Origin: Gnetum montanum
Taxonomy: Eukaryota > Plantae > Gnetophyta
Length of the DNA stretch: 64,000 nucleotides
Direction: 5' to 3'
Assembly: GCA_015680685.1 (NCBI GenBank)
Contig: MNCI01000255.1
Location: 124,182 to 188,181, forward strand
Shown: positions 8,629-62,600 of the stretch, piece after piece
Layout of the letters: every line of letters starts with the position of its first letter
Numbering within the stretch: the first letter of the stretch is position 1
Made by a program: the position numbers and the translations under genes
The notes under the pieces: generated by a model
Seen by the model: the letters and a program-made list of their open reading frames with translations, nothing else
Database searches by the model: none
Told to the model about the DNA's origin: nothing

Positions 8629-8770
8629 AGACATTTAAGTCCTCAAGTGATCTACCAAACCATTTGAGGTACTTGTAGATCCTTTTCTAGGCCCATGGAT
8701 CTACAAGTTAAATTTTTTGAATGGGAATCTTCAACCCATTAGTACCAAAGTTTTTCATTGCTATAGTTTT

Positions 8771-8787
8771 TGGCACTAGAAGGCAGG
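8771..8787 (+). other. Primer binding site, tRNA-Asn type (Tat)
   Basis: TGGCACTAGAAGGCAGG versus TGGCGCTAGAAGGAGGG, immediately after the LTR tail. Confidence 0.75.
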
Positions 8788-9593
8788 CCTCTACCTGACT
8801 TCTTCATCCAAACCTATTGCAGTTTCTACCTATTTCTACTAATAGCATCTTTTAAAAATTTAATCTAAAATTATTTTTGGTTTTACCATTGCAACCTATA
8901 ACTTTGTTTTTCCATCACTATTTGCAATATCGGTTTGTAGTGTAGCTTATCTTCACTATAACCTACAACTTTGAAAATTTATTTTATTATTATTATTTTT
9001 GTAGTTCACTATAACTTGAAACTTTCAAAAAATTATTTATTATTATTGTTGTTGTTGTGTGTAGCATCCTTTCCAGCATACACTAGAGAAAACTAAATAA
9101 AAATAATTTTTAATTTTATAGTTGCAGTTGTAATGTTGATGCTAGAACCACTTCTTAATTTCCCAATGTCAGTAAACTTAGGAAATTTCAAGTACTCATC
9201 AAACCTACCACTTTCGCTACAACTCATTGACATTATACAAGTGTCATTGACATTGTAATTATCATGCATACTATGTAATTTTCATTGACACCATGTAATT
9301 GTCATTGATACTATGTAATTGACATTGATGCAAACAAACTTTCATTGATGCTATGACACTGTTATTGATGCTACAACCTACGTATGCTATAGCTTTCAGT
9401 TATTGTGTATGCTAAATCTTTTGCCTAGTTAAATACTCTATTAATGCCTTTTCACTAATCCACTATGTTACCACTTAACATGATTAACATGATTTCCAGC
9501 CAAGACATAATTCATGTGTATGACCTAAAGGATCTAGCTATGGCTAAGCATAGATAATTACTTAGGTAGAGGGGCAAAAGCCTAGACTTTGCT

Positions 9594-12500
9594 ATGATTA
9601 ATGAAGAAGACTACAACTTTATGTGTGCAAAAATCCAAGCTAGCTTGTCAATTCCATGCACAAAATCCAAATCCAAGCATGAGTTCAAATTAATCTATAG
9701 AAATGGAAATAAATACATCTCCTCCCCTTATGACAAGATAAAACTAAATGACATTCATACATGCATACTTGCTCAACTAATTGAGATGGATGAGTTAACT
9801 AAATAGGTCAACTTAGAGGGCCACCATGAGGAGTCTATTGAATTTGAAGTCAAACTAAAACTTGATACCTTCATTGGGATCCGTTTCCAACAATTGGCTT
9901 TTGAAACCATTCCACCCAATTCAGCCTCTCTTGCCCCTTCCATGGAGCAAGTGCCCCAACCTTCTTCTCCTCTTGCCTATCCTAATATGTTCAAGTCAAC
10001 ATCCATCATAAGCATCCACCAGGCATAATCCATGCCTTAGTTGGCCTCTCTTTTCTTCTTCACACCTTTTTCCATGTAACCTTGATCTATACAATCATCC
10101 CTTGTATTGTTTACTGTAGCTCATCCCTTCTCCATACCAATGGATTTTTTAGTGGGAACCCAGGCAACCCAAGCATCTCATACCCCATTCACCCACTTTG
10201 TCCCTCAAGTACCTCCTCAAACCTCATTTTAACTGTTTAGTCCCCCTACAACAATGATCACCCAACCTTTACCATCCTTACTATTACTGATTGTGTGACC
10301 ACAAGCCCCCCAACTTGCCATGTAGTCATTTGTACAAAGCCCATAGCCCACCAGAATTCCTTAGTACTTGGATCAAGTCTTCCAGATGATCAAAAATCTC
10401 ACTAAGCTACGAAAGCTCAAAGCCTCTACTACTCAAATGGTCAAGATAATGGACTTCTACAAAGATGATCCCATTAGTCTTGTTGTCCCCCAAATAACTC
10501 TTCTCTCAAGAATTCCCATCCCCCAATTTAGCAAATACAATGAAGAGGGTGATCCCAACTCACACATCATTACCATCCATTCTAATTGCTTGTTATTACA
10601 AGCTTGGCCTCATACCTTTCTGCACATATTTCGTATGTTCCTTATCAAGAAAGGTTTGGATTGATACCATGTGTTACCTAGAGGATCCATTACCTTATTA
10701 GAATACTTAGTTATGCAATTCATTGATCATTTCATGTATAAATTAAAACTTGATATGATTCTTGACTAACTAATGAAGGTCAAGCAAGGGCCCCTTGAAC
10801 CTATGTAAAAGTTCATATAATGATGGAATGTTCTTGTCAATAAGATTCTTGGACCCATAGCTAAGACACATCTTCTAGCCATATTCAAGAAGACAGATAA
10901 TGACTTTATTAAGTCCAAACTCTAATACTTAGACCTGTGGTCCCTCAGTTAACCTTTCTTATAAATGAAGAACATAGGGGATTCTGCTAAAGCTAGCCAT
11001 GACCTTGCCTAAAGATAGGGACAATGGGAAACAAAACCATGCAGTAGTGGCCACAGTCGCCAAAGAGACCAAAACAATGTAGGTGCCAAAAAAATCAACC
11101 AAAGGTCACTATCACCATTGCTCAACCCTCAATGTCTAGGGCTCATATATCTAACCAACCTAGGCCTAACTTTGAGAAAAAGGATTGGTCAAAATATACA
11201 AAGTTGCACTTGAAACCGTTCGATCTCCTTGGCTAGTTGCTCAAAAGTGGCCATATCCAATATAAGCAAATGACTGAGAATGCCCACAAGAGGCATCATT
11301 GTCTATGTGAGATTATCAAGGATCCCACTATGGCAACCAAGATGATCCACCAGTGCTTAAATATTTCAAATTAGATTGATTTTGTGATTATAATCAATCG
11401 CCCAGTCATGCTATCGATTTCTACTTGGCCCTAAAGGATGACTTGATAGAAAATGAAGAGCTGGTTTCCAATTCTATTTGGCCCCAAAGCCAATACATGT
11501 AGGTACATAGTAACCCCTTAAATGCTAACGATGATCCATATACAATATCAATATTCAATGTTGGCAATAATCCTAAACTTGCCTAGGAGCCGTTTGTGAT
11601 TTGGTTGCCTCCTTGTGATGAAAGGACTTTAATTTCATCAAGTTCAAGGACTTCTTTTGTCATAAGGACACCATCACCAATGCCTCCTAAAGAACCATTT
11701 ATTATAAGAGTGCCCCATCCTACCACTATTAAGCCCACAACTCAAGATTACCAACGTCCCCTTGTGGTGGCCAATGCCTCAACCCCTTCATAATCTAATA
11801 ACAAGAGATCATGAATAAAATAATGTAAGAAGCCAAATCCTAAGCCAAATGCTAAGGATAATGCAAAACCAAAAGTGTGGAAAGAGGTAGGTCCACCAAA
11901 GCCTACACCCATTTCAGCCATACCCATGAGTTCTAATGCTTAAGCTTCTTCAATGAGTTTGCTTAAGAGGGACAATAAACAACAAGAAAGGAAGAGGAGC
12001 CTAAACCACAAACATTAAAACATGAGGTAAAAATACTAGGTAGAATGAAGAAATTCAAAAGCAAAAAGAATGAAAAAAATAATGAATAATGGCAAAGACT
12101 TTCTCATTACCATGAAGCAAGTCAAGCTCTTACTTAAATAGAAGAACATCTCATTGAATTTGTATGACTTAGTTATGACCTCTCATGCCCACTATGAAGC
12201 TTTAGTTCATATGTTAACTTCTATTTCTATCAGTGAGGATATCCCAACCAACCAAGAATCTATACACGCAATAATAGTCCCACCCCCCATAAAGAATAAA
12301 CAAGGTCAACTACCTTAACTTTTTGGGACAACGAGGTAAAGATCAAATCACAAAGTGGTAAGGTGTTAAGAGCTCCCTTGTTTATAATGATAAGGGTTGG
12401 CCAGTACAAGGTACATTGGGTACACATAGACAATGAGATAGCTACTAATGTTATCCCCTTTCCTATTGTAGAACATTTGGGATCAACCTAACACATTTAA

Positions 12501-13019
12501 AGCACCTCCACCTCAGTGCTTAAATTATTCAATGGATCATGTGTAGAGTTGAGAGGATCAATTTTGTTGGATTTAGTAGCTAGGAAATAGTTCCTCACAT
12601 CAGCTATTTTCCTTATGGTGGAAGAGACACTAGGATTCAACCTAATCCTGGGGAGACCTTGGCTAGCTAAAGTATAGGCTATCTCTTCCTCAATTCATCA
12701 AGAGATTCATCTTCCCTACAAGGAAGGTAAGATTATTATGCACAGTGACAACATAACTCCCTTGTCTATCAACAATGTTGACATAGAACAAGGATATAAG
12801 GTGGAGTTTCAAGAAGAAGCTTTCATAACCCAAAAGATAGCTAAAAAACCCACTAAAATTGACCAAGGTAGACCTAATAACACACAAGCCACAAACGAAT
12901 CATGGGATGAATTGCCATTTAGCATGGTAAGCGAGTGGAATGTGAAGTATAAAATCATGCAACAAAGACCTTACACATTTTCTAATCTCTCAAAGATTAG
13001 AAAGCAATTGTGCAATTAA
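9594..13019 (+). pseudogene. Tat gag-protease, decayed
   Basis: IPQFSKYNEEGDPNSHI (gag) at ~10515-10570. VHIDNEIATNVI at ~12420 and FNLILGRPWL at ~12636 (aspartic protease). Many stops. Confidence 0.8.
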
Positions 13020-13499
13020 ACAATCTACCTACTTTCTTAACCTTATACCTTATGATGTAGTCTTTAGTTAGTAGTCTTACTTTCAACTTTTACATTTAGC
13101 ATTATATCTATGAACTTTATTTTCATGTTTAGTTTATAATTTCATGCCTATTCCTTTTGTATTTACATAAAATCATAAAAATGCAATAAAAATAAAAAAT
13201 ATGAAAATATGTTTAAAATGTAACGAATAAAAAGCCAATTTAGAATTGAAAACAATAACTCATAATAGTCAAATTCTAGATCAATAGTAGCCATGGTCAC
13301 ATTGTGTGACAAATACAAAAAAATAGATACATCGTGTCCGATAGGCATAGTCATAGCCAATACTTGCATTGTGCAATAAATGACAAGAGCCTATAAAAAA
13401 TAATAAATAGTATCATGAGTTAAAATAGCTAAATAACATTAATATCTAACAACAATGACATGAAATAAATCAAATAACACATCTAGGCCATGAGGGGAG

Positions 13500-16400
13500 G
13501 AGGAGTGTCATCGCTACTACCAAGACCATCGACATGACCAACACCACTAGGAGTCTATAACCAATAATGAAACAATTCAAGCAATTAGTAACCATGGTAA
13601 CTTATAGAAATAACATAGAATAAATAAAAACTATAAAGCCAACACATTAAAACATTTTTTTTTCAAACCTTAGGAGAATCAAGGACAATGTCCTTAGGAG
13701 CAAACTTCTAGAGACTCACTTCAAGCCTATGAAGAATTTGTTCTTCACTCAAATTTGCCTAGTCAACATTTCCTAAATCTACACCTGTTGGAACCTTTCC
13801 CCTCTCTACATCTATTCACTCAAGTGGATCATGAGAAAAGTCTTAGTGGTGGTTACTCTAGAAGCAGTATTAATTAGGGAAATAGGATCATCAGTATCTA
13901 CCACTAATTTCTCAAATAAGCAGAAAACATCCTCTACGACTATACCCTATACAAACAACTTGTACTTATGGTATTTCATGGTTACCTCATGCCATGATTT
14001 TTTGTAGTTTCCTCTTTCCATATTGTAGAGTCGTTTGTGAGCCATTTGCCCCTACCCCACTCTAAGATCAAGGCACAGTGATCATGCCACCCCTTGGCTT
14101 TATGAATTAAATGCTCCATTTGTTTATCCTTCTCCACAATGCTTCTAGCTAGGGCCACCTTCCCCTGGATGGCACTCCAATACCGAGATCACTCAATCTC
14201 CTTAGCACGCAAGGAATCCCTATTGGCTACTTGTGCCTCTATGAATTCCTTATGATCCTTAAGGCTCATAGCTTTATTAGTTAACTCCTTCATTTGTTTC
14301 TCAACTACAACAAGGTGTTCCCACAGCAACTCATTGGAATGTTGGGATTCCAAAACATCAACGCACATGATGCAACATGTTTAGTAGCCCCTTTGTAAAA
14401 CCTCCGTGGAATGCTCTCTACATCTGAAGGCATCTCAAAAAGCTCATCAAGCTCAAAGTCTCGTTAGGAATTCCATCTTATCTTGGGAACTTTCAATATA
14501 AAAAAAACTTAAAATAATAAGAAACAATAAAGATAAAACATGAGAAACTATAATCATATGACCATAAGACATGAAAGTGAAGATTAGGATTACGAAACAA
14601 ACATAAACAAAAAATACAACATAACTATTCTTACCATAATTAGGGTCCATCTATTGCAACCTACCCACCATATCAGACATCATACCTCACATGAACTCCA
14701 CCTTATCTGGGACCTCCACCCAAGGTTTAGTGTAAAATGTAGATGACTTTGAAGGAAGATCATGCCCTACAATGAGCATAGAAGGCAACATCCATTTACA
14801 GTGAAATAACAATAAACAACTAAAATGAAAGTAAAGGTACAAATGTTAAAGCTCACTAGGAAAGTTAAGAAGCATGTCTAATGTGGCATGGTCCTCTAGA
14901 GGTATACCATCTAGAGAGAAGTCCAAGATATCTAATGCCTCTTTAGATCTTCTTTTCTCTTCCTCCTTGTGCCTACGCTCCTCCTTCACAGCAACATGAG
15001 TAGATAGGTGATGTATCCTCCCTACAATGAATAAAGGGCAATAGGAATCAAATGAGCTAGAAAATAGTTTTAACAAAAAAATGAAATATAAAACATAAAG
15101 AAGAAAGAAGAAAACAATTACATACCTCTAATGCCTTGAGTCTTCTTCTTTAGTTTGATTATCATTTTCTTAGAGGCTTCTTAAGCTAGGGCTGAAGTGT
15201 TGTTATTAACTAGTGGCCTTTTTATCTGTTCTTTGGCAACACCATCCACTTTTGCATGAGCTTGCTTGGCCTTCTTCACATTGTCATGGATAAAGTGGGG
15301 CTCTCTTCCCATGCTATTAGGGAAAGTATATTGCAAGCCACTAACATTCTTAGTGATCAGAGATAATGATTCACATTCTTCCTCCATTGGTGGACCTTGA
15401 ATATGCATCACTGGGACAATATCTTGTGCCCAAGGCCCTAAGAGCTAAGATTCATTGCGAAGCACCCACTTTCCATCTCTCTTGATAACCAAAAACTTTA
15501 TGAACCTTCTAAGGTACACATAGAAAAAGGTGAACTATAGATGATGTTGAAAATTAAGGTTACCATGGAGTTTGTGGACTTCCTTCTTTAAGCCACTAAT
15601 GAAGAATGTTACCCAATCAAACTTGGTTCCATTGGTTAAAATCTTCTTCATGGTCCAAGCTTGTTGAACTCCCATAACTTTCTTTTATAACAAGAGCATG
15701 GGAAAGATCCTAAATCAGAATAGATGGTAAGTTTGGTTCACCTCCTCAACAATACACTTACTAAGAGATAATTTAGGACTAGGAAGTGAATTAAGCCAAG
15801 CTTCTAACTCTTCTCTATAGCTTGCATCTTTCCTTGCTCTAGTTGCTACCTCAATGCCATCGTGAGGTATGCCAAAATGCTCACTAAACACAGATTTATT
15901 AATGTTTATAATAATGGGAAAACCATGGACACTAGAGGCAAATCTAGTGATAGCCTCATCAAAAGAATCAATGACATTTAACATCTCAACTGGTCGCATA
16001 GATGGGCTAGGTAACATAAAGTGGTCAAACAAACCTGCTCTATTAACCTCTGCTAGATAACCCCAAGATCCCTATTCGCCAATCATTCATGTGCATCGTC
16101 TACCTTCCCTCACTTGAGGAGAATCTTCTCCTCAATATAGCCTAAAGTGATCACAACAATGGTAGATTCACACATAAAATCTGCAATGCAAGGCAATTAA
16201 CAAGATATGTATGACAATATTAAGCATCAAAAACTATAAAACTCTAAAATGATGACCATATTACAATGACTTATACTTTACCAGGTTTAGGTGAATGTTG
16301 GTGAAGGTTGGGAGCCCTTGCACGTATGCTTATATCTTAGTGTGCCCAAAAATTATGTCCATAGATCTTAGCCACACATGTTTGGTATACCTAAGAATAC

Positions 16401-17073
16401 TGCAACTTATAATTATTAAACTCTTCACCAAGTTGAATAATTACCTGAGCCTTTACGCTTTCACCTTGTCTAAACTCTTCCAAGGAAGTGTAGGCGATGG
16501 ATAAAGTTTGATCATTAGCCACAAGCCCCAAGATAAACAAACAAGACCCAAAGACCTAAGGACGAACAATCGCAAAACAAGACAACCATAGATACAAAAA
16601 CAAAAATGATGCAAAACCAAGCTTACCCTTCAAGCAAGTAGATAGAGCCAGGGGGATTCTAGAACAAAGAGTTTACAATCATTAGGGTATTATCAAGGTG
16701 ATATATTGTGAATTCTGGCATCCACCAAATCAGTGATAACTGCCGAACTACCACCAAGGGTGTGCTCCCCTTTTGCTCTGTCTCCATAGCAACTTTAGGT
16801 TCATCTTTCATGAACTTGAGGATGCATTGGGAAGACCCTCTTGCAAAAGCCTCAATAATGACCCTTGCAACATTCATTGTTAAGTGTGATCATATGATCA
16901 CATTGAACTATTGTAGTAGATAGAGCAAGAACTCCCTAGCACCTGAGCAGAACTACACATGAATCTCCTCATCAAATTGCATGTGGGAAGACAAGCTGTT
17001 TTGGCAAGTCTTTCCAATGAAACATAGGATGCTCACCGGTTCAACCATCACCACAATGGGTTTGAGATATGCC
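13500..17073 (-). pseudogene. Antisense multi-exon gene inside the Tat element (FCP1/NIF-like exon followed by transposon-associated exons), decayed
   Basis: Minus-strand GT donors (16626, 16444, 16282, 15125, 14856) and AG acceptors (17074, 16391, 16181, 15022, 14767) delimit mostly short introns. Long frames such as 15715-16032 are present. The 3' part (13200-13650) recurs after the protease of Tat copy B (48100-48620). Confidence 0.6.
16627..17073 (-). pseudogene. Exon encoding a degenerate FCP1/NIF (HAD superfamily, CTD-phosphatase-like) domain
   Basis: Translation AYLKPIVVMVEPVSILCF...FCSGAREFLLYLLQ*FNVII*S...PLVVVRQLSLIWWMPEFTIYHLDNTLMIVNSLF*NPPGS aligns by eye to the NIF motifs RPG..EFL...F.V.IWS, KDL..IW and NTLL.DDSP....NP. 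Flanked by TGTAG| and |GTAAGC. Confidence 0.6.
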
Positions 17074-17512
17074 CTACATACACAAAAATTTAACGACAGC
17101 ATAAGAGAAGAAAAATATACATGTCGGACGTGGTCTTTACATCAAATACAACTTTGTAACTTAGATTTCATTATTTTAAGAGGCGTCTTCTGATTAAGAT
17201 GCGGAACGTGCTAATCTGATAATAAAAAAGCAGCAAATGCCAAAAGATTACTTCGAGCCAACCCCTTGTATAACTATCGTCCCTGACCAAAATACATCCA
17301 ATTATAAGACGTCCGTTTAACGCAAATTTCATATTGTTCATCCCACTAGTCTCTACCCCAGCAGTGTTGATGTGCTAAGACAGCTCACTTCCTGGAATTG
17401 CAATCTCTGCGGCAAATACATTATAATTTGCAACCCAAAAAAAAGTTCTGGGCCATGCTCTGAATACCAGCGTTGTTGTTGAAGCCCACATTGAGGAGGA
17501 AAGAGCAAGAAA

Positions 17513-18080
17513 ATGCAGCAGCATCTCATGCAAATGCAGCCTATTATAGGAGCAGCTTACTCCTCCAATACCATCACCACTGATCATATCCAGAAGTATT
17601 TGGATGAAAATAGGCAGTTAATTCTGGCAATTGTTGACAACCAAAACCTTGGAAAGTTAAATGAGTGTGCACAGTACCAGGCAAGGCTGCAGCAAAATTT
17701 GATGTATCTTGCTGCCATTGCTGATTCGCAACCTCGAGCACCATCCGCACATGCTCAGATCCCCTCAAACGCAATGATGCAATCAGGTGTCCATTATATA
17801 CAACACCAGCAGCAGGAAGTAACACCTCAGAGCTTGCATACCTCAAGGTCCCAAATGCTTTATTCTCAATAACCTATGGCTGCATTTCATCAAGCGGCAC
17901 AGCAGCACCATCTCTTCACAGCCAACTTGGAATAAATTCAGGAGCAACTAATGGATTACAGATGCTACATGATCAGAGAGCACTCATGTCGTTTCTGGAC
18001 GAGGAGGTGCAAATGTGGGCCAAAATGCAGACGGAGCAGGCTCATCTTATTTAAAAGCTTCTGAGGATTAAGGAAATTAG
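17513..18080 (+). pseudogene. GIF: Intronless GRF-interacting factor (GIF/AN3, SSXT domain) copy with premature stop and frameshifts; 119-aa ORF 17513-17872
   Basis: MQQHLMQMQP...ITTDHIQKYLDENRQLILAIVDNQNLGKLNECAQYQARLQQNLMYLAAIADSQP. TAA at 17870. Downstream shifted remnants SLHSQLGINSG..GLQMLH and SSYLKASED*GN*. No introns across the SSXT domain. Confidence 0.92.
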
Positions 18081-19127
18081 TTTAATCTGTGTTTTTTATT
18101 CGTAGAAAACTGAAGCTGTACTGGTACTGTACATGGTACTCACTAATGCTTCTCAACTTACCATTGCATTTAGAATTTTAACATAAACTTTTTTAGAGAC
18201 CTTTCTATTCTTAGACCTTCTCTTCATTGCGTATATAGGAAATATGATGACAAGGATGCCAGGGTTATATAATACGGCCTACAATTACGATAATTTCTCG
18301 TTTTACTTTGGGTCTTAGCTTAAATATTTGAACTATTATCCATTGTTCATCGGCACTACTGTTACGTTGCGGATGGGTTCCCTTAATTTCCCAGCTTTTG
18401 TCAGAGCGGCTGTGCCCAAGGCTTAAGCAATTGAGATAGCTTATTAAGGTAGCGGAAAACCGATCGGAATAGCTGACAGCAATCGCACCAGTTTTTGAGA
18501 GAAATGCATGAGAGTTCCCGGGCCAACCATGGTCGGAATCTCCAAAGCTCTTATCTACTTACTATCTGCTAAGGGTCTCACGGCGAATAACAGGCCTTTT
18601 CATAAGATTTACAGGAAAGCTATGTGACTGAAAATCATCACGAGGCATGAAACCCCAGCGGTGAAGGCCTAACGGCAACGCCATCAGGCCTCGGAAATAG
18701 TAATTCCTGAATGTTGCCTTCGAATCAGGCTACGATTCGTGTGGCTCTGGTTGCGACAGCGAGAACAAAATCGCATCTACGATACCAATGACATGGATCT
18801 GAAGTTTGTCAGGGTTTCACAGAAGAATTGGTCTCTGTGAACTATCTTTCTTCGAAAATCCACTACCTGTTTCCGAATCTGCAAAGTTGTGTGAGTATTT
18901 AAATATGGCCTTCCTACTATCAACTTCATGCCTATTTAACTCTATGGAAATGTTGCCTTTCATGTGTCCTGTATGAGTTACACTATCATAATTACTGTGT
19001 CTTTGACTATCTCTAGAAATATCATTCATCCATGGGCTTAATCCATTTCACGGGACTACTCTTTTGATGATGCTGATGGCTCGATAAGTTAGTGTCATTA
19101 GCATGTACAACTACACTTTTCACTACC

Positions 19128-19170
19128 AACTCCTCTTCCTTTTAAAAAAAAACTGAAGGGAAGAGGAGTT
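19128..19170. repeat. Inverted repeat, 12-bp perfect stem
   Basis: AACTCCTCTTCC ... GGAAGAGGAGTT around an A-rich loop. Confidence 0.8.
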
Positions 19171-19493
19171 TTTCAAGGAACAATGGACACTGGAACGGAA
19201 AATTCTTACCTCCCATACATAGCCGGTAATTCTTCATCAGCAGGGAGGTCTGTAAATCTTGAAACTACGTCGATGGCTTCCTCCTCCTTCAAGCTCTGGG
19301 TTCCTGCTGCTGCTGCCGTTCTTCCCTGCCATGATTACAGACGATTGGGATCCTGGGCGCTCGAATGAAAAATTGGTAAATCAACAACGTTAATCTTAAG
19401 TTCACGGGTGTTCAACTCTGCTATCTCTAGGCCAGGGCAGAGTTTAGATAACAACCGACAAACGATCAGTTCAAATTAGGAAGTTTCAGGAGC

Positions 19494-19633
19494 AACTAGC
19501 GCCTTTCAAAAACGAAACTTTCCAAAATCGATAAAACAAAATTACCAGCGTCTGCCAAAAACGAAAGTTTCCAAAATGACACCGCTGCGGTATCTGAACT
19601 AGCGTCTGCCGAAAACGGAGCTTTCCGAAATCG
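19494..19633. repeat. Three diverged copies of a ~37-bp CpG-containing unit
   Basis: Approximate consensus AACTAGCGTCTGCCAAAAACGAAACTTTCCAAAATCG, with short unequal spacers. Confidence 0.75.
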
Positions 19634-19739
19634 GGTACTCCATCTCTGCCACCCCCATGGCCATGGCCATGACCATGAAGAAGCACAAGAACGCCACCTT
19701 CAGAACAAAGAGGCTTGTACTTACTAGGGCAGACTCCAT
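19599..19739 (-). CDS. Candidate 46-aa small ORF with a hydrophobic signal-peptide-like N-terminus
   Basis: MESALVSTSLFVLKVAFLCFFMVMAMAMGVAEMEYPISESSVFGRR*, start context ACAATGG. No homolog recognised. Confidence 0.2.
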   Translation of the reverse strand: MESALVSTSLFVLKVAFLCFFMVMAMAMGVAEMEYPISESSVFGRR

Positions 19740-21320: not shown

Positions 21321-21348
21321 ATGTGAGTGTTGATATCAACACTCTCAT
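21321..21348. repeat. 20-bp perfect palindrome (28 bp with one mismatched pair)
   Basis: GAGTGTTGATATCAACACTC at 21325-21344. Confidence 0.85.
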
Positions 21349-21416
21349 GGCAGCACGGGGTCATGTTTGAATAAGTTTTTGTCCCATGGTAATTATAAAT
21401 CCTATGGTATTAACTC

Positions 21417-21554
21417 ATACAAGTTATTTGTATGAGTTGCATAGATTAAGCTCAACCGTAATATACAAGTTATTTGTATGGGTTGCATAGATTAAGCTCA
21501 ACTGTAATATACAAGTTATTTGTATGAGTTGCATAGATTAAACTCAACCGTAAT
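21417..21554. repeat. Tandem repeat, 3 x 46 bp
   Basis: ATACAAGTTATTTGTATGAGTTGCATAGATTAAGCTCAACCGTAAT x3 with 1-2 differences per copy. An 11-bp inverted repeat lies at 21412-21438. Confidence 0.92.
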
Positions 21555-22698
21555 ACCTTCGTTGATTTTGTTTATAATACAGTTTGCAATACAGGAATCT
21601 AGTTGAAATACAATAATATCAGCATGCCTAATAGAGTAAGTTGGCTACCCAAAGAGGGTTTGTGCTACCATAAGCCAGATAGCTATGGGTGTAAATATCC
21701 CAATTTTTTTAAAGCTTGGCTGAATATCAATTACATCTCCACCCTGCGCTTTCATTTTTCTCGAGTATAAATAGACAAGTCACGTGAATGAATAGCCTAA
21801 TGTAACCCTATTTTCAATCTTTCATTGACGTTAATACTTGTTCCATTTATAGGTGAAGACAAATTTGGCAGTAAAGAAAATTTATACATTTTGTATTCGG
21901 CACACAAACACCTATGAAGCGTAACAGGGGAAAAATGTGGCAAGTTGACGAAGTGGGAAACGTATAAACCAAAAACATTGAATCTGCAGCTGATTTTTGC
22001 ATAGTTTACTACAGACCAGTAGCTTCTCAATACACAAAACAAAACAGACAGAAATCGTGCTACTTTAATAGACAAAATACCATCCCCACCCTTAAAAATC
22101 ATCATAAAATCAACTTTAAGCAAACAACATCTTTACACATAAAAATTTCTTTGTTTATTGGTTCGATCCATTTAATTATGAATTTTAAAATATATATACA
22201 TATTTATACGGTATAGAGAATTTTAGAACTGCTACATCTCAGGGACGTAATAGAAAATTCGGTTTCAGCTTCACAGGATCACGACGTTGAAGTTGACACT
22301 TGCTTTGGTTTATCCACGTTAAAATCACTCCTGATTTCCAACAATATTCGATATAATTTATTTCAACACATGGCAGTTAAGAAATGCAGTTGAAGTTCCA
22401 ATAATGTCCGGTTGATGCTTAAACCAACTGAAGATGAATTTACGGTACAATTTAGTATAAATTTTGATAACAATATTAGGTTGAGATAATAAGTTGCAGT
22501 AGCCTCCTATTCCTCACACAGATTCATCAGGCTAATATAAATCCTTTATTACAATTTCCACGCAGTGAGCTTCTTCTAATCTAATTACATTGAAACTGAA
22601 AACATAATAATCTAATTCCATAGAGACTGCCTCTACATCGGGACGCGGGGGTCTTTAGTTGCCAGTAACATGGGTGAATAGTTTCCTCCCTGCAAGCT

Positions 22699-23232
22699 TT
22701 ATTCTTCATCACTTATCTCCGGAGATTGAAGCTGTGCAATGCTGGGATTCAGTGATATTGAGGCATCCAGGCTCCCAAGTTCCTTCAATGATTGCCAGGT
22801 CCCCAGGGCAGTGTTCTTTTTTCCTTGTTTCTTCGTTCTTGCAGCTTTCCCCGTAAACGCCCCTTTAGCACCCTTTACCATGCTCAAGAACACACGTAAA
22901 TGCCCCAGGCTTGCTGTTACGGTTGAGTAAGTCGGTAAAGGTATTTCGATCTTCGCCACCATTGCTTGCAGCAAGTTTTTGCGCATGCTTGCTCTGTCTA
23001 AGATCCCTTCCAATGGATTCCTCCGTACAAATGTGTGAAATGCTACTTCTGCCACTGCCTCCTCGGCTTGTCATAACGTGCTGAAAAACCTGGGACTTGC
23101 GAAAGTTTCATTGTTAAAACTCACCACTGCTTTAAAACGGGGAGCATGATCCAAACCTTCATGTATGCAATAGTATGAGTGCAGGTTGAAGCAATTCCGT
23201 TGGGACCATTCTTGCAACTGGTTTCTGAACAT
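22699..23232 (-). pseudogene. DRB2: Double-stranded RNA-binding protein (DRB2/3/5 clade), two dsRBDs, intronless, in-frame stop at codon 54
   Basis: MFRNQLQEWSQRNCFNLHSYYCIHEGLDHAPRFKAVVSFNNETFASPRFFSTL*QAEEAVAEVA...KNLLQ...LPTYST...GHLRVF...FTGKAARTKKQGKKNTALGTWQSLKEL matches DRB2-type MYKNQLQELAQRSCFNLPSY..EGPDHAPRFKA. TGA at 23071-23073 is probably CGA>TGA. The exact paralog is uncertain. Confidence 0.9.
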
Positions 23233-24400
23233 CTCTGCACCACAACATTCAAAAGAAAAGAAGTGGAGTTAGGGTGTGAAGAGAATTCCATGTGGGGTGT
23301 GTCTCCCCTTCCTAAATCACAAATCCTTAAATTATTGATGCTTTTAAATACCAGCCATTATCAACGTCTCCCTGCTGACAACTCAACTACCGATCATTCA
23401 GCATACAAACTTAGGTCTTTTTCCAAGATATAATACTAACTGCCCATTCACAGTAGTCATTCTTGCTGCCTTTCCTCTGCACATCATAATTCAAATGGCA
23501 GTAGCTAAAATGATAGTTCAACTTGATCTGCAAGCTTTGCCGTTTGTCCTCTGATTTTCCCTAAACGTATGTGGCTTCCATTTTTACATCGCCCCGGCCC
23601 AGACGTAGACACTGACTGTTATAGCAATGAGAGTTTTGCTGCAATTACTATTTTTGTTGCACTTATTGTCCCTATGTTTACACACCACTCCTAGGAAACT
23701 TTTTAAACTACATGCTACTTGCATGACCAATCCACTAACATTACACAAAAAAACTGGAGGTTGCAGGGAGTCTGAACCTTTCCCTATGCAACTCCAATGA
23801 TTTTGGTGGCATGTTTGGTAGGGTTCGCATGGTGGCTGACTGGGAGTGAAACGGAAATTGCACGGTACGGAAATTCTGACTTCCTGAATCAGATCCTGGG
23901 TGGTCACCATTGGAGGCGATTCAGAAGATTTTGAGTTCCGCAGATTTTGGACCTATGGTGGCCTGATTCGCAGCGGCCTCTGATTCAGTTGGTGGACGCT
24001 GTACCGAGTAGCCTCTATGTTCCACCTAATACGCCAAGCACGTCTATGCATGATCGAGTTTGCTTGCTGCAATTTGTGAGCATGTTTATGGAAGCCACGG
24101 AACGTTGAACAGCTTTCCACGTTCTGAAAACCCAATCATGTTTTGCTGCAAGTCCCATTGCCTGCTGGGTTTCTGTGGTGTTCTTGAAGGAGTAGATGGT
24201 GTGCGCAATCATGGTCTCTCTCTCTCTTGATTAGGATGGGTACTGTGAGTCAGGATCTGGTCACCGAGATCTTCCTATGGCCCCTGCCCGCCAAGGCTTC
24301 CAGCCGGTGTACAGACCATAGACGACAGCATGATCATCAACAATAATGTAACAGCTATTGACTATTGTTGCTTTTTGCTTCCTGCCACTTGGGATCTAGC

Positions 24401-24435
24401 CATGCGGTCATGCAAACCTCTTGCATGACCACGTG
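24401..24435. promoter_or_regulatory. RY (CATGCA) pair in an inverted repeat plus an adjacent G-box (CACGTG)
   Basis: GGTCATGCAA-ACCTC-TTGCATGACC overlapping CACGTG at 24430-24435. Confidence 0.35.
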
Positions 24436-26199
24436 TGGTGCACTGGAACCCTGATTAGGCTCCCGAAACTTAATCACAACGGCCTTCCTTAAAATAAACC
24501 CTATTTTGGAAAGAATTTTTGTTAAATATCTTTTCTTGATTCTTTTGTCAAAGGCTATAACTACATTATGTTATGTTTTAATAAACAAATAAATAGATAA
24601 AACGTTTGATATTGTTTTTTCTTCTTCTTCTTTTAGTTTCGTTTTCACTTTTGTGAGGTTTGATGTGCAAGTTTCTAAGGGAGCAGAAGAGGCAGAAGTT
24701 CAGGCGGAAACAGAGGGAAAAATCAAAACCGATAAAACCCTCCTCACAATTAGATGTAGGGGATTTGGCAGCCAGAAAAGGGAAATCCGAAGAATCTTTT
24801 CTTGGATTGTCTTACTAAATCAATCTTGGAGGTGCTTCTGGAAGGAGTTCAGTGAGTTGTGAATGGATCTGAGAGCTAGAAGTTGTAGACTTTTTTGAGG
24901 AGGTGTACTTCCTGGAGGCACGGGAAGATAAGCTTGTACAATCAACCGTCCATTTTGCTAATTAGATCTAGTGCTCAAATTTGAGCTAAGTCTTGCTAAA
25001 CCCTATTGTTTGTTATTGTGAGCTTTAATTTCTGTTGTATGATAAAGGTTTCAAATATAAAGCCTTTATTTGTATTTGAAGTTTATGAGCTTTTAGTTAC
25101 TTTAAACTTTCATTTGCTGAGCTTGTTTAATGAACAACCATTTTATTTTTCTGGTTAAGTTACCAATTCAAAGAGCTATTTCGTCTAAATTTCCTTGTTA
25201 AAGTTATTTAAAATTATCAATGTTATTTTACTTGATAAAACACCATGTGGCACTTTCCAACTGAGACTATTATCGAGTTTCTGTACCTGTACAAGAGGTG
25301 CCCTAGGCAATAGTCTCTTAAAATGAGCTTTTGTGGTTGTTGCTATATGACTAATATTTATGCATCAACAATGAGATTCTAAGATTTTTTTATCAAACAA
25401 TTAAAAAAAAATCTTCTTCTTCTAAAAATTTCCTTATTATTCCTTTTATTTGTGAACCTAGAGATCTCTGACCATACTCTATTATATCTATTATATGATT
25501 TTTTGTTCCTTTCATAGCATTCTACTTTTGCAAGAATAAAAGTCATTATTTATGATAGTCATTAATAAAGAAAACTACCATTTTATGATTAAAAAAGTTA
25601 AATTACACCTTCTCATAGGTAGGGCCTTAGATTATGGTTATTGGTTTTGTGAACAATTGATAAAAGGAGTGTTGATGTGGTTACAAGTGGCTAAATCACA
25701 TCTTTTACCTCTATATAATATTGTTCTACTTGCATTTCCTATGTGAAAGCTTAAGCTAATATAAAATTTGAAAATTTCACTTCAAATTCCCTTCAATATT
25801 AGCAACTGATTTCCTGTTATTGCAAGAAACTAAAATACAAAATAATTTAATTAGTTAATACTATTCCGATCTTGTATGCCTTATTTTACTTGATTTTACT
25901 TAGTTGCTCTCTTATTTTACTTTGTTTTTACCTAGTCTTACTTTTTTTTTACCTCATTTAATCATCATTGGCCCTAGTTTACCTTGTAGTGACCTTGTAT
26001 GATCTCACTTTACCTTATTCTACCCTGCTTAGCATTATTTTACTATGTGTTGGATCTTAGTTTTGCTCTGCATTGCTCTGTTGTTGCAGTGCTTTTGCAT
26101 TATTTTAACATTGTTTAACAACTATGTTACATAGATGCCACTTAATATGCTATTGGTTGAACTACAAGGTTTGAACATGGATATATGAACACCTCTAAA

Positions 26200-29100
26200 C
26201 CTGTTTGGATCCTATGGCGATGTTGAATGATCATTTGAGCTCAAATGCTTAGATTTTGTGTCTGGAAACCTCTTCAACCATATAGCCTCAATAGAGAAAG
26301 CCTTAGAGTGGCTAGAGTACGTTGTTAAGACTCTCAACTTAGAGGCCAAAGACATCACGAAAGGCTCTCTAGTTGAAATTTCTATTATAATGCATAACGA
26401 TGAGGAGAAAACACTAAAACTAAGTTCCTCACTTGAATCTCAGTAGACTCAAGACATTACTAAACTCCTCTAGGATAACATTAAAACCTTTGCATGGTCA
26501 TACAAAGACATGCTAGGTCTTGATCCATGCCTAGTACAACACAACATCATACTCAATCCTAGTATCAAACTAGTTAAGCAAAAGGTTTGCAAGATTAGAC
26601 TAAATTTAGCTTTGGCGATTCATGAAGAAATCATGAAAATTGTATTAAGCTAGTTTCATTCAAGTTGTTGATTATGCAAATTGGGTGTCCAACATAGTGG
26701 TGGTCCTTAAGAAAATGGGAGTACATGTATTTGCATCGATTTCTGAGATCTTAATAAGGCAACTATTAAAGATGATTTTTTGTTGCCTAGTATTGATCAA
26801 CTCATCAATACTATGGCTGGAAATGCCCTATTATCCTTTATGGATGGATTATTGAGATACAACCAAGTTAGGATCAACCTAAAGCCTCAGTTGTATACAA
26901 CCTTCATGACCCCTTGGGGAACCTACTATTATACCATGATGCCATTTAATCTAAAGAATGTGGGTGCAACCTATCAATGAGCTATGACCTAGATATTCAG
27001 TGATTACATGCTAGGGTTACTTAATGATTATGTTGATGACATGGAAATCAAGAACAAAATGGTTGATGATCATGCACATGACCTTGACTTAGTTCTCAAA
27101 TGATGTCTCAAATACAAACTTAGGCTTAATTCTAAGAACTGTGTCTTTTGCATCAAAACTGAAAAGATGCTTGGCTTTGTAGTGTCCAAAGTAGGGATAC
27201 ATGTCAATCTTAATATGGTTAAGGCCATAACTATGACATCCCATTCCCAGATGTCATGAAAAATGTCAAATATATGTTATATTAGACATTATGTGTAAGA
27301 AAACAATATATCAAATGTCAAATATATGTAACATTTAACATTATGTGTAAAAAAATGATAAGGAAAATGCAGAAGAAAAGAGGAGAGAATGCTTTATTGA
27401 TGTGAAATAATGTATTTAGATCATGCTTTAAGAGTGTTCCTTGGGATTTTCTTCCTTTGACATCTTTCACTTTGAGGAAATCTAGCACTACCATCATGGT
27501 TAGGCCTATCATCTACAAGAAGCGATGACTAGTCCTCTTCTTATCCTACTTCACTTGGCTTTCATTACTCACCTTTACTAGCTCTGTAACTGCATGCTAG
27601 CATGACCTCTAAGCCCAAGTATAAATGCCTTAGGTCAAACCCCCAAAGGTCACCTTGAGAGACACATTTGTGATTACAATGCACCCTTTTAGGTCTCAAT
27701 TACAACATGCCCTTTCGTGTCTCAATTACAACATATCCTTTTGGGTCTTGTTATGATAATGATAACATTTGTTATGTTGAGGCACCATCTTCGTTATGAA
27801 ACAATACCATTTGGAATGGGGACATTACAATAACCAACTTGGTAGTGCTAACCAACCTTAAGGAGCTTTGGAAACTGCAAGGTAAATTATAATTTATTCA
27901 TATATTCTTGTTAAGGCTTATAGATAAACTACAATCCATGCAACACTTCCTCTTTAGGAGCCAAGTTAATATCATATGCGCTCAATGCCAAAAAGCCTTT
28001 CAAAACCTTAAGCAAGATTTGGCACAGCTACCCATGATCTATCCATCGCAAAAGGATAAACCTTTTTACATTTACCTTATTATCTTTGACACATCCATTG
28101 CCTCTTTACTCTATTAAAATGGAGATGATGGAGTAGAATTTCTACTATACTACCTAAGTCATGCATTAATTGTCTATGAGACTTGATACACCAAAGTTGA
28201 GAAGTATTGTCTAGCCTTAGTTTTCTCATTGAAGAAGTGAAGACACTACCTCTTTAGGAGCCAAGTTAATATCATATGCAAGGACAATATACTAAGAGCC
28301 ATAACGACCAACATTTATGAAAGTAGTTGGATAGCCCATTGGAAAGTCATAACAAATGAATTTGACCTACATTACATCTCTCAAGCCTCAACCAAAGGCC
28401 AAGATATAGCCACACAACTCATAGTTTTTCCAATTGAAGACAATGTAACCATAGACCTTGAATTCCCTAATGTGCATGTCAACATTGCTAATGAGATGCC
28501 CGAGGGTTATGAGACTATCATGCATTTTGATGGAGCTTCAACTGCCCATGGGGCTAGTGCTACTGCCATCATAACATCATCTTACAGTGAGATCCAACTT
28601 TTTTCTTATCATTTTTAATTCTCATGTCCCAACAGTGTGGTGGAGTATGAAGGATTAATCAAAGGAATGATGGTAGCTCATAGCAAAGGAATCAAATGAT
28701 TGATGATAAAAAATGATTCACAACTTGTGGTTAACCAAGTAACTGAGGTTTATGCATGTAAAGCAAAATATTTACAATCTTATTGTGACCTAGCTAAGAA
28801 ACTCATGCAACAATTTCCACATGTGGGCATGCAACATATACCTCGAACTAAGAACACCTTATCTTATGCCATTGCAACCTTAGCCCTAAGTGTGAGGCCA
28901 TATGCTCTTAGCAAGATAACTTCTTTAATAGAAAACTATGCACTTCCCATCACATAAATCAAGGACATCTCCATAGCCACTATTGACACTACCCCTCAAA
29001 GAGAGTGGTATGACAATATCAAGTTTTACCTAACACATGGTGAACCTCCATAGAACCTGACTACTTCTCAAAAGGATGCTATACTTAAAAGATCAAAATA

Positions 29101-30192
29101 ATATGTCATTGTAGTTGATAACACACAATGTCAAAGGTCCTATGATGGCATATTGTCAGTGTGCTTGGGTAAAACTAAAGCTTGCACAATCCTTGAGGAA
29201 GATCATGAAGGGGTACGTGGAGGGCATATAGGACCTAGAGCCATGGCTACAAAGATTAGAAAATTAGGATACTATTGGCCCCATATGAAATGTGATTTCC
29301 TACAGAAGGTTAAGACTTGTGATTCCTATCAACAACATAGTAACTTAGTACACGTGCTACCAATGGGATTACACACTACCCAAATCACCTAGTCATTCCA
29401 ATGATGGAAAATAAACATGATTGGACCAATGATGCCTAAGTCTTCCATAGGGCATAGCTTCATCATCATTGCAATTGAATAGTTTACAAAGTGAATTAAG
29501 GCTATCCCTCTAAGGAAAAGAACATCTCAACAAGTCTATAAATTCATATTAGACAATATAGTGTTTCATTTTGGCATACCTCTGGCCATAGTCACAGATA
29601 ATGGACCATAATTTAGTAGCCAAGAAATGCAAGCCTTTTGTCAAGAACTAAGCATTAAACATTCTTTTCATTACCATATTATCCACAAGCTAATGGGCAA
29701 GCCAAAGCTAGCAACAAGGTCATCATAAACTTTCTTAAGAAGATGTTAAACAATAGCATATGTAACTAGCATGAATGACTTATACATGCACTATGGGCCT
29801 ATAGAAAAACCTTTAGGACTACAATGAGTGCCACTTTGTATAGCCTTATTGAAGCTATTATGCCTCTTAACTTGTAGATTCCATCACTAAGGGTAGCTCT
29901 ATTTGACTTCATCAGTGGAAGAGTAGCAAATACAAGTGCTTCCTCACATCGAACAATATCAAAAGAGGCAAAAAAATAGCATCATCATAATCCGAATAGA
30001 CCAAAAGTTAAGGAAGGAGACCTTATTCTTAATGTTCATCATGAACATGTAGATAAGTTCTCAACCAATTGGAAAGGATCTTTCTTGGTTACAAAAGCCT
30101 ACAATAATGGAGCATTTAGATTGGTAGATATGAATGAGAATGAATTGGCCAATCTAGTCAACCATTTCTATCTCAAACCTTATTATGTCTAA
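26200..30192 (+). pseudogene. Tat/Ogre pol: RT, RNase H, additional archaeal-type RNase H (aRH) and integrase, decayed
   Basis: FAWSYKDM, LPSIDQL, MPFNLKNVGATYQ, YVDDM (~27029). aRH MHFDGAS..EYEGLI..DSQLVVNQV (28520-28800). INT HEGVRGGH..GYYWP, DNG, YPQANGQA. Ends in YYV*. Confidence 0.9.
27232..27829. mobile_element. Solo LTR (598 bp) inserted in the Tat pol, 5-bp TSD ATAAC
   Basis: ATAAC at 27227-27231 and 27830-27834. Termini TATGACATCCCATTCC...GGAATGGGGACATTACA. The pol frame (VKAIT|NL..KELWKLQGK) is restored when the insert is removed. Confidence 0.85.
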
Positions 30193-31297
30193 TGCTAGCC
30201 TATTTTTTCCTGTAGTCCTTGTATGTTTTGTTTGTAGGTACGAATGAATGATGGATACTAATAACTCTTGTGACCTACAACAAGCAAGCCTATGTGACAT
30301 CTTATCTTTTTTTTTCTTTTTGGCATAACAAATGAATTGCAAAACTTTGTAAAATTTGTGAAAAAAAAATATAGATTCCTCATGTTGTACCATTTATAAC
30401 CTATGATGGCACATATTTTACTTACTATTTCATGTGGCCTTAAGAAATCTCTTGTAATAATATGTATTAGTTGTCTTGTTTCCTTATCCTCTTGGATTTG
30501 TGATTATAGAATGAAGCTTCAAGTGATCATGAAGGTTCAACTCATCGTAGCAATAAGTTATCATGTGATCTTGATGCATGAGATTCAATTAGCTTGTCCA
30601 ACTATGTCAAGAGTTCTTACCTCACATCACTTCTATTACCTCTTTTGAACCATGTTCCCATAGCCAAAGTACACTATTCCTTATCCTAAATAATAATGAA
30701 AATTAATGTTTGACATTCATGCACCATGGTCATGTGACATACTTCTCTACATGCTTCACAGATCAAGTTCGTTGAGTGTATCATATCTCATTCAACAAGA
30801 GAATAAAGTAGAATCTGGCATACTCCACTAATCAAGTTCACTAGATGTAACACATCTTCTTTAGTAAGAAAAAAAAATTTAGCCTTGACAATGGAACCTA
30901 ATGAATTTTTCACACCTAAAAGAATAGAAGAAAAAAAAGGGGAAGAAGATGCCAAGAAAGAAAAGAGGCCAATGAAGACTAATGTAAAATAAATGACTCC
31001 AAACCAAAAATGAAAAGAGCCTAATGACCAAAGAGGCCTAAGGATGGAGTGTTAGTTCCTCCAAAACATTGTTGAGTAACTAGCATTTCAAACATGAAGC
31101 ATGAAGACCTTTAGCAAGTTCACATAGCATAATCATATCATTACCATGATGTTGACATTTGGAATTCCTTGTTAGCCAAAATGACCATGCCTCATTAATC
31201 ACTATAATCATTGATCCCATCCCAAACTCTTGACATTTCATCATGACCTTCTTTCACCATCATGAGCACTCCCGAATCAAGTGTGGAGAGAGAGCAT

Positions 31298-32389
31298 TAG
31301 TCATGAACCTATAGTGGTGCCTCACATTCTTTGTTGATGTCCCTTAGGTCAATCCTCAAAACATCAACAGAGAGGAACCAATGAAACATTCCAAAGAAAT
31401 TCATATTATAATGCAGGACCAAAAGTCTTTCTAACTTGGTGGAAAAATAAAGGCAGATACAATTGCCTTATTTCCCCACTAATGCTAGCGTCATGGCCTC
31501 ATGTTATCGATAATGATGCTAGCATCGTTACCTCATGTTACTAACAATGATGCCAGCATCATTACCTCATGTTACTAACAATGAAATTAGCATTATTATC
31601 TCATGTCATTGACAATGACATTAGTAATTGTTACCTCATGTCACTGATGCTCAAAATGACACTAGTGTTATGGTCTTCATGGTATTGATGTTGACGCTAA
31701 CATCATGACTTCATGGTACCAACGTTGATGTTAACATCTTGGCCTAATGGTACTAAAACTAATGCTAACATTGGATGTTGCATGTAGATGTTGTAGGTAT
31801 GATAGAATTTGCTAGAAATTTGCAACAATCATGATAGAAACAATTAGCAACAACCTACTTCATCATAGGAACTTTTGGCATTTGACACTTACATCGAACG
31901 TAAGATTTTTGAGTAGTGTAGGCACCCAATAGTCCATGGCAACCAACATTACTCTCTCATAACATAAACCACCAGAGTATATAACCAAAGCTAAGGAATA
32001 GATCTATGTGGATACATTTCCCTATGGGAATATCAGAGCTTAATGATGATATTGCATCTTTGGGTTTTCTAAAATCCATAATCTAGATCTCCTAAACCTT
32101 TGCTTGTAACATTTCATTTTACAACATTAATATCAAAGTTGTAGTTTTGCCTTTATTTTGTCATTTTTCTATTCTGGTATTTCACAATGTATCTTAAATT
32201 AAAGATGATTTATTTGCACTTTTTATTTTATTTTTTGTATTACCCGATAACAGACATTTAAGTCCTCAAGTGATCTACTAGACTAGTTGAGATGCTCGTA
32301 GATCCTTTTTGAGGCTTATGGATTTGTAGGTTTAAACTATTTTGATAGGGATCTTTGGCCCTTTAGCATCAAAATTTTCCATTAGTACA
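31298..32389 (+). repeat. 3' LTR of Tat element A (contains a ~34-bp degenerate tandem array at ~31480-31770)
   Basis: Preceded by PPT GGAGAGAGAGCA and ends ..CATTAGTACA. Homologous to 43179-44259 (minus). Confidence 0.75.
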
Positions 32390-62449: not shown

Positions 62450-62600
62450 GTATGGCTTGTAAAGCTATAGCTTTTGAAGATATAGTGTGTGAAACTTGCA
62501 ACTAGTGAGGCTATAGCTTGTGAAGCTATAGATTATGAAAGTTGTAGCTTGTGAGGCTATAGCTTGTGAGGCTATAGCTTGTGGAGCTATAGCATGTGAG
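62450..62600. repeat. ~15-bp tandem repeats in the Tat 5' UTR
   Basis: GCTATAGCTTGTGA(A/G) repeated about 9 times. Confidence 0.8.

Follow-up and report, generated by a model that had tools for sequence, protein, structure and literature searches.

A decayed Tat retrotransposon of Gnetum montanum with host-gene pieces between protease and reverse transcriptase

Architecture of the Tat-1 element

The 64,000-nucleotide stretch of Gnetum montanum contig MNCI01000255.1 analysed here (the window, whose own positions are used throughout) is a nest of decayed plant long terminal repeat (LTR) retrotransposons. One of them, Tat-1 (8629-32389), carries a multi-exon antisense gene and a CpG-rich island of host-gene pieces between its protease (PR) and its reverse transcriptase (RT). 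A sequence-only reading of the window had proposed that the two halves of a single Tat element bracket this island, in the plus-strand order LTR tail, primer-binding site (PBS), gag, PR, antisense gene, island, RT–RNase H (RH)–aRH–integrase (INT), polypurine tract (PPT) and LTR, and we find all of these parts in that order (Table 1).

A leader of ~800 bp, with no long open reading frame (ORF) in it, precedes gag, and a GTAAG donor-like motif lies at 12927, within the PR region. Neither gag nor PR gave a match in the Pfam profile search, which covered 144 stop-free stretches of the window and named only SSXT, phosphorylase, dsrm and pol domains, the other matches being weak, unrelated and below cut-off. 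Within pol it recognises RVT_1 (RT; E 2.8e-11), RT_RNaseH_2 (RH; 2e-6, 27893-28114), RVT_3 (aRH; 4e-16, 28478-28960) and, from 29102, INT (rve 3e-13; Integrase_H2C2 1e-8). Rfam, searched over the whole window at E 0.1, returned 0 matches. The element thus shows the features of the Tat clade, namely an aRH and the gypsy order RT-RH-INT with LTRs, PBS and PPT. Its aRH sits between the native RH and INT, as in Tat structure #1, a position that fits neither TatII (aRH before RT) nor TatIII (aRH after INT) as REXdb defines them (PMC6317226). As judged from its sequence, 8629-32389 is confirmed as a single old, decayed Tat (aRH) Ty3/gypsy element; recent autonomous activity is rejected, since every ORF has several stops.

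The pairing of the outer LTRs is central to this assignment. Of the two short LTR motifs on which the sequence-only reading had relied, the 27-mer is present at two places only, 8629 and 32252. The variant marking a second pair of LTRs likewise has just two exact occurrences, at 63216 and 43317 of the minus strand, where it belongs to a second family member, Tat-2. The two-plus-two pairing goes beyond chance: over the surviving 137 bp the Tat-1 LTRs are 76.6% identical (26 transitions, 6 transversions) and the Tat-2 LTRs 76.3%, versus 62-67% for the four cross pairs, which differ by 12-16 transversions each. Among 26 informative LTR columns, 19 support the pairing within elements (AB|CD) and 5 and 2 the alternative groupings (AC|BD and AD|BC; p = 4e-5), while columns of transversion or indel type are distributed 7/0/0. 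The Tat-1 LTRs are therefore closer to each other than to those of the one other family member compared, and Tat-2 separately repeats the layout of Tat-1 at 66-73% identity, as expected if both halves come from one element.

Table 1. Features of Tat-1, its cargo and the neighbouring elements (a dot marks features without a strand)
Feature	Position	Strand	Remarks
5' LTR remnant of Tat-1	8629..8765	+	3' tail, 137 bp; 76.6% to 32252-32389
PBS	8771..8788	+	type common to Tat-1 and Tat-2
gag, decayed	9570..11750	+	at least 22 stops in one frame of 532 codons; tblastn and DNA homology to Tat-2 gag, 66.7%
PR region	12300..13016	+	66.3% to Tat-2 PR; followed by non-coding spacer
AT-rich spacer	13017..13480	+	kept in Tat-2 (48456-48374)
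Antisense gene, multi-exon	13480..17100	-	GT-AG introns, read directly; 3' end also in Tat-2
Cargo island 1	17170..24900	.	~8 kb host-piece mosaic between antisense gene and RT; retains CpG and CWG
Alpha-glucan phosphorylase fragment	17296..17430	-	PF00343 E 1.4e-5; Arabidopsis PHS2 E 2.4e-15
GIF (AN3-type) mRNA copy	17431..18250	+	SSXT E 5.5e-23; coding sequence 17513-18071, one stop, frameshifts
Highly expressed host transcript piece	~18550..18760	.	RNA depth 259+217 in X17; no Pfam match
Second expressed host transcript piece	~20690..20830	.	RNA depth ~22+23, loose ends on both sides; no Pfam match
DRB2/3-like fragment	22700..23275	-	two double-stranded-RNA-binding domains, ATG at 23232; DRB2 E 5.8e-20 and 9.5e-15
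High-copy AT-rich stretch	24900..26150	+	absent from Tat-2; ends in acceptor-like AG ahead of RT
RT-RH-aRH-INT, decayed	26150..30190	+	Pfam domain matches
Solo LTR, very high-copy	27229..27829		601 bp, 5-bp target-site duplication, inverted ends; between RT and RH
PPT	31285..31294	+	same in Tat-2
3' LTR of Tat-1	~31298..32389	+	~1.09 kb, CA end
Tat-2, second family member	43181..64000	-	5' LTR tail from 63080 up; 3' LTR 44259-43181; pol deleted
Island 2	45610..48050	.	2.4 kb at the same site in Tat-2; CpG observed/expected 0.90, CWG 0.97
Athila nested in Tat-2	49966..59880
SIRE-1, copia (SIRE-like), nested in Tat-1 5' LTR	3427..8628	-	LTR pair 3427-3910/8146-8629, 82.8%; TG start at 8628
SIRE-2, copia (SIRE-like), target of Tat-1	32390..37929	+	5' LTR cut by Tat-1; 32391-32461 vs 37768-37838, 78.9%

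The antisense gene and the island of host-gene pieces

The antisense gene that follows PR is family sequence, present at ~15-35 single-copy depths in run X1. It has no Pfam match and no homologue among 213 candidates, and is consequently left without a PMD or TRP28 assignment.

Beyond it lies the island, in which the sequence-only reading had recognised copies of a GIF and a DRB gene; we add the phosphorylase fragment and two expressed transcript pieces. RNA reads depart from the window sequence at 17430, where the phosphorylase piece abuts the GIF copy. The GIF coding sequence is entire and intron-free in alignment to full-length homologues, matching best those of Taxus (79%) and Cryptomeria (77%), while no angiosperm homologue exceeds 74%; the parent GIF protein itself was absent from the database searched. 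In soybean and Arabidopsis, 2-5 introns interrupt the GIF genes (PMC8876841), and judged from these genes rather than from its own parent, the copy appears to have lost its introns. Since RNA molecules start at 17457 (8 of depth 39), it would begin approximately at the mRNA 5' end; it has no poly(A) tail, and no A-tract of 8 or more lies within 17445-19143. Over 17961-18071 the copy is ~45 C-terminal residues short of the Taxus and Cryptomeria proteins; RNA reads cross this stretch with a 1-base insertion only, so the parent GIF itself seems short.

Both copies had been called intronless. This is borne out for GIF but not for DRB, which retains an intron end (branch site, polypyrimidine tract and TGCAG) 2 nt upstream of its ATG. 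The intron-end stretch shows 80 other letters in diverged contigs, and RNA depth over the DRB piece is zero. We note that a single contig at 23147-23418 (depth 278 in X1, 872 in X5) joins sites on opposite strands, its high depth pointing to a many-copy short repeat related to the DRB region. A near-perfect 46-nt triple also lies inside the island, at 21417-21555. The two expressed pieces gave 0 Pfam families in 9 read-through frames.

Transcription of the island itself was not detectable: reads at least 99% alike number 4 of 3253 in X16, 0 of 1951 in X13 and 4 of 3403 in X17, with 26%, 2% and 26% of the respective runs read. The cargo copies are pseudogenes. At the island edges we found no terminal inverted repeat (TIR), target-site duplication (TSD) or poly(A), and only two weak hairpin-plus-CTRRT hits; a TIR search gave 4 AT-rich chance matches in this island, none with a long TSD, and 0 in its counterpart in Tat-2, though decayed old ends could be missed. 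Similarly, the poly(A) tail and TSD that mark LINE retrocopies were absent from the edges of GIF and of the island.

Tat-2 carries a second island at the same site

The minus-strand element Tat-2 runs through leader, gag, PR, spacer, antisense-gene 3' end, island, RT start, 3' untranslated region and LTR. It aligns to Tat-1 over the leader (72.8%), gag (66.7%), PR (66.3%), RT start (69.6%) and 3' region (73.1%), as well as over the post-PR spacer and the antisense-gene 3' end. Its pol is lost between the RT start and the INT end, with the fusion near 45237, which makes it a gag-PR-only derivative.

In the corresponding position, Tat-2 too contains an island that has retained CpG, a feature that the sequence-only reading had not described. 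This island 2 sits between the antisense-gene remnant (~48050) and the RT start (45608), where it takes the place of most of the antisense gene. It has no blastn match to island 1, no match to Pfam, also in 6 read-through frames (plus frames covering 45600-47500 only), and none to Rfam. Loss of element sequence at a captured insert is reported as a signature of template-switch capture by LTR elements (PMC5131818), and the replacement of family sequence in Tat-2 follows this pattern.

Island junctions and further copies

Of 23 listed runs, 8 were compared with Tat-1. The left junction of island 1 is crossed by contigs in X1 (15914-17475, 2 differences, depth 9.4) and X5 (16401-17475, 3 differences), and in congener D by contigs in X8 (16400-17589) and X9 (16685-17596). 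This junction is genuine and common to a congener; the island is thus joined to Tat sequence in a relative, whereas a separate origin of island and element would have predicted an island without Tat flanks there. The right island edge into RT is spanned by no listed contig, and no single contig covers the whole island.

The Tat-1 haplotype is single-copy in A and B (depth 8-14). Non-coding island sites in X5 are nevertheless hit by 3-11 contigs each, with pieces of the DRB region 11-13% diverged, and some of these extra copies may be parent genes. In X5, a depth of 21.9 is seen at 17264 and again at 17350-17372, which is the sum of the own contig (12) and of a contig of depth 9.88; the latter shows the RNA-type letters at three sites and breaks off at 17476, as the own contig does. 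In X6, the sole depth at 17264 is 7.79, which is that of record 8, a contig aligned to the antisense gene at 16457-17075 with 103 differences (~16%) and 447 letters left over. These matching depths, in place of a direct alignment, suggest that this left junction is likely to recur at a second locus, ~16% diverged.

Amplification in congener D

The contig across the junction reaches a depth of 127 in X8 and the next three reach 96-114, compared with 3.0-4.65 for single-copy-like contigs; the shared repeat bin is 3.4-fold below that of X5 and X6. We estimate ~29-38 copies left of 20190 and 10-16 right of it. X9, a D sample from another study, gives 34-50 and ~19-25 copies on a repeat-based scale of ~1. 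These estimates use single-contig depths and two normalisers, summed depth being no copy number, and correction for partly read runs raises the D estimate to 36-67. The amplified stretch covers 12849-20190 and continues to 32286, with one X8 contig leaving the window sequence at 20188.

The D copies are 96-98% like the decayed copy of the window, which indicates that a dead element multiplied after the species split. How it did so is less clear. A tandem or segmental route has about an even chance of being correct. Remobilisation in trans is possible but somewhat less likely; the 5' LTR already carried its SIRE insertion before the split, which speaks against simple remobilisation in D. Organelle transfer or library bias is a rather improbable source of the high depth, and a frozen organelle copy is disfavoured by the symmetric change spectrum in X8 (86 vs 89, p = 0.88).

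Base composition and age

The CpG richness attributed to the island by the sequence-only reading is real. Island 1 has a CpG observed/expected ratio of 0.61 and a CWG ratio of 1.36, versus 0.13-0.28 and 0.14-0.43 in the larger Tat parts; the short spacer stands at 0.39/0.0 and the kilobase ahead of RT at 0.18/0.72. Both CpG and CWG are kept in 19 of 123 1-kb segments, and all 19 fall in the two islands, which both sit between an antisense-gene remnant and the RT start. CG:GC counts separate the islands from flanking Tat sequence (p = 2e-15 and 4e-17).

Between the window and congener D, the island differs at 77 of 3893 positions (1.98%) and the Tat arm at 90 of 2221 (4.05%; p = 3e-6), as compared over 7 of the 8 listed X9 contigs, those lying wholly on one side of the junction. 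Because the island diverges at half the rate of the arm, its CpG retention need not mean a younger age. Fixed differences between cargo and RNA number 257, of which 158 are transitions and 99 transversions, and T/A is in excess on the window side (100 vs 58, p = 0.001). Cargo transversions amount to 3-4% over ~2.4-3.3 kb, a rough figure, since GIF reads from paralogues and some repeat sequence enter into it; it is of the same order as in the Tat-1 LTR pair (6/137, 4.4%).

Origin of the cargo

We consider it probable that the cargo was loaded before the last retrotransposition of Tat-1 and was carried inside the element RNA. The basis for this co-mobilisation is indirect: island 2 at the same site, the likely diverged junction copy and the strand-selective loss of introns. 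gag-PR and RT-INT would form separate reading units, so that the gap between them could tolerate cargo. Pieces may have been acquired one after another: GIF, which seems to start at the mRNA 5' end, by a template switch to RNA packaged alongside, and DRB probably from genomic DNA or an unspliced transcript. Passage through plus-strand element RNA would strip introns on the plus strand (GIF) and spare those on the minus strand (the DRB intron end and the antisense gene), and the pattern of intron loss across one sense and two antisense genes appears to fit such a passage. Following insertion, the Tat arms would have decayed by C-to-T change faster than the cargo. An acceptor-like AG precedes RT in both Tat copies, besides the donor-like site at 12927; no spliced joint is listed among the RNA matches, although the copy is silent.

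The idea of gene capture by the element, put forward from the sequence alone, is therefore supported, while pure template switching onto mRNA fails for the antisense DRB and phosphorylase pieces and for the DRB intron. In fact, these antisense pieces and the kept intron end weigh against loading within the element, as they misfit its simplest form, and transduced genes are usually in sense orientation (PMC11963269). So do several other observations. The LTR comparison covers 137 bp and one outgroup element, and the other half of the Tat-1 target site lies outside the window. Island 2 matched no host gene in Pfam or Rfam. The contigs yielded no second full-length copy, a second junction copy could equally stem from an old segmental duplication, and 17.1-20.5 kb reaches only ~1.5-6 single-copy depths in A and B, so that it is not widely amplified there. 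CpG and CWG, kept in the island and lost in the arms, are also what a later arrival predicts.

Such a later arrival would place the island in a single old Tat as repair filler, as a decayed Helitron or Pack-TIR element, or as separate retrocopies that landed in open chromatin or a similarly open region near the antisense promoter, with the other copies made by segmental duplication. The contrast in CpG (0.61 in the island vs 0.13-0.20 in gag-PR, antisense gene and pol) would follow directly, mixed orientation and a kept intron end suit capture at the DNA level, and one weak hairpin-plus-CTRRT lies on the minus strand near 24965. However, the edges lack TIR and TSD, GIF has neither poly(A) nor introns, an island occupies the same site in the second element, in place of family sequence, a junction copy diverged by 16% is likely, and the slower rate of the island explains its CpG retention; we therefore hold a later arrival to be unlikely. 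Far less probable is that two separate Tat fragments flank, by chance, a pre-existing gene island of low methylation. An LTR identity of just 76.6% over 137 bp would allow it, as would a target site whose other half cannot be seen in the window, but the LTRs pair 19/5/2, the halves are complementary with no domain duplicated, and Tat-2 has the same layout; moreover, the island is a mosaic of broken pieces from at least 4 transcripts rather than a gene region, and merely 4/3403 and 4/3253 RNA reads are 99% alike. That the joins are assembly artefacts is the least credible account of all: the window does contain an N gap and, near its start, a near-perfect duplication of ~441-443 bp, and no single contig bridges the entire island or its right-hand join to RT, yet independent contigs from two A and two D samples cross the left junction with 2-20 substitutions, and overlapping contigs tile most of the island.

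Loading before the last retrotransposition may be part of a wider pattern, which we put forward tentatively and regard as doubtful in its full form. A gymnosperm Tat lineage might maintain a permanent cargo bay, placed between RT and a spliced antisense gene, in which host DNA or RNA is loaded serially in either orientation, only sense introns are stripped and cargo is less methylated than the arms; in D, a dead copy would then have been remobilised in trans to ~30-40 copies, multiplying the GIF copy together with antisense phosphorylase and small-RNA-pathway gene pieces.

Relation to known elements

Capture of host genes by LTR elements is itself known, from Bs1 and others (PMC13317346, PMC5131818, PMC6431247), and the new part here is the fixed cargo site between PR and RT. 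Like maize Bs1 and LTR retrocopies, Tat-1 holds pieces of several host genes between its LTRs, including partial mRNAs (PMC5131818, PMC13317346), and, like Bs1-type elements, whose further copies share junctions, it shows element sequence being replaced, clearly so in Tat-2. Unlike Bs1, Tat-1 keeps gag-PR and RT-INT around its cargo, which spans ~8 kb in both orientations and includes an intron end, and no chimeric ORF or transcription was seen. Similarly, the gene-fragment mosaics of Pack-MULEs and Helitrons contain both orientations and intron sequence (PMC13317346). The island of Tat-1 differs from these in having an intron-free GIF and no TIR, TSD or convincing Helitron end.

Gymnosperm Gypsy and Copia elements also capture gene fragments, including exon fragments, some from several genes, in old captures (PMC13477047). 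That work consists of genome-wide counts of BLAST overlaps, and its text mentions neither a fixed site between PR and RT nor the Tat lineage or co-mobilisation, although its Figure 7E and supplements may. It gives ~400,000 gene fragments captured by transposable elements in each gymnosperm genome and calls the process poorly understood.

Among Tat elements, Ogre (Tat lineage IV) resembles Tat-1 in that a non-coding region parts gag-PR from RT-RH-aRH-INT, in its size of up to ~25 kb and in its extra ORF (PMC4408406, PMC6431247); its PR-RT gap is a spliced intron (PMC4408406). Ogre is an angiosperm element whose extra ORF is in sense and 5' of gag and whose size stems from long LTRs, whereas Tat-1 has LTRs of 1.1 kb and a 13-kb PR-RT gap filled by the spliced antisense gene and host cargo. 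Retand shares with Tat-1 a long internal region with antisense ORFs, and its non-autonomous members amplify, but its additional region, which codes for TRP28 and is confined to angiosperms, follows pol and precedes the 3' LTR (PMC11963269). In general, the extra ORFs of Tat elements are described either 5' of gag or 3' of pol (PMC4408406, PMC6317226, PMC11963269). The order RT-RH-aRH-INT is that of gymnosperm Tat structure #1, clusters J/K (PMC10508981, PMC13468544), which is dominant in gnetophytes (PMC10508981) and present in conifers II (PMC13468544); the text of these two papers describes no antisense gene or cargo between PR and RT. A literature search, in which subscription journals were thinly covered, yielded no gymnosperm Tat in which host cargo and a spliced antisense gene were described as lying between PR and RT.

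Plant LTR elements measure 4.4-24.1 kb (PMC6317226), and a 24-kb unit is near this upper size; standard annotation would miss or split it. The locus provides a model that can be tested genome-wide, with one fixed loading site and strand-selective intron loss as the mark of passage through element RNA. Congener D, in turn, may serve as a natural experiment, in which small RNAs from ~30-40 copies of a GIF fragment could act back on the parent growth-regulator gene.

Neighbouring elements and further observations

As the sequence-only reading had stated, the 5' LTR of Tat-1 is cut by a SIRE-like insertion (SIRE-1), and its 3' LTR is followed by an LTR tail of SIRE-2. The left LTR of SIRE-1 is itself cut at ~3427 by an Athila-like LTR. 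We take the names SIRE and Athila from that reading or from sequence motifs, not from a phylogeny. SIRE-2 contains gag and then an env-like region, apparently without pol, and would thus be non-autonomous. The nesting ages are mostly consistent, with LTR pairs at 82.8% in SIRE-1 and 88.2% in the Athila inside Tat-2; the exception is the transversion distance of SIRE-1 (0.056), which is not below that of Tat-1 (0.046).

The AT-rich stretch ahead of RT reaches a depth of 3286-4184 in run X1 and is a candidate, not more, for native Tat-family sequence. Its reading as part of a separate LTR at 24400-26200 was rejected, as it matches no other LTR of the window and gives 0 TG..CA/TSD candidates. It contains a hairpin at 25260-25320 (-18.4 kcal/mol, no shuffle control), which a loose-end consensus suggests is conserved over many copies; a hammerhead reading of this hairpin was discarded for lack of an Rfam match. 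The solo LTR between RT and RH is presumably Tekay-like, by its end motif.

A 34-nt tandem array occupies 31482-31761, inside the 3' LTR of Tat-1, and further arrays lie at 9254-9353 (20 nt), 41397-41805 (45-nt unit) and 62456-62608 (46/15 nt). A gap of 723 N at 55582-56304 falls inside the Athila pol, and the duplication near the window start, a direct one at 509-1392, is 99% identical with an N at its join and is likely an assembly artefact.

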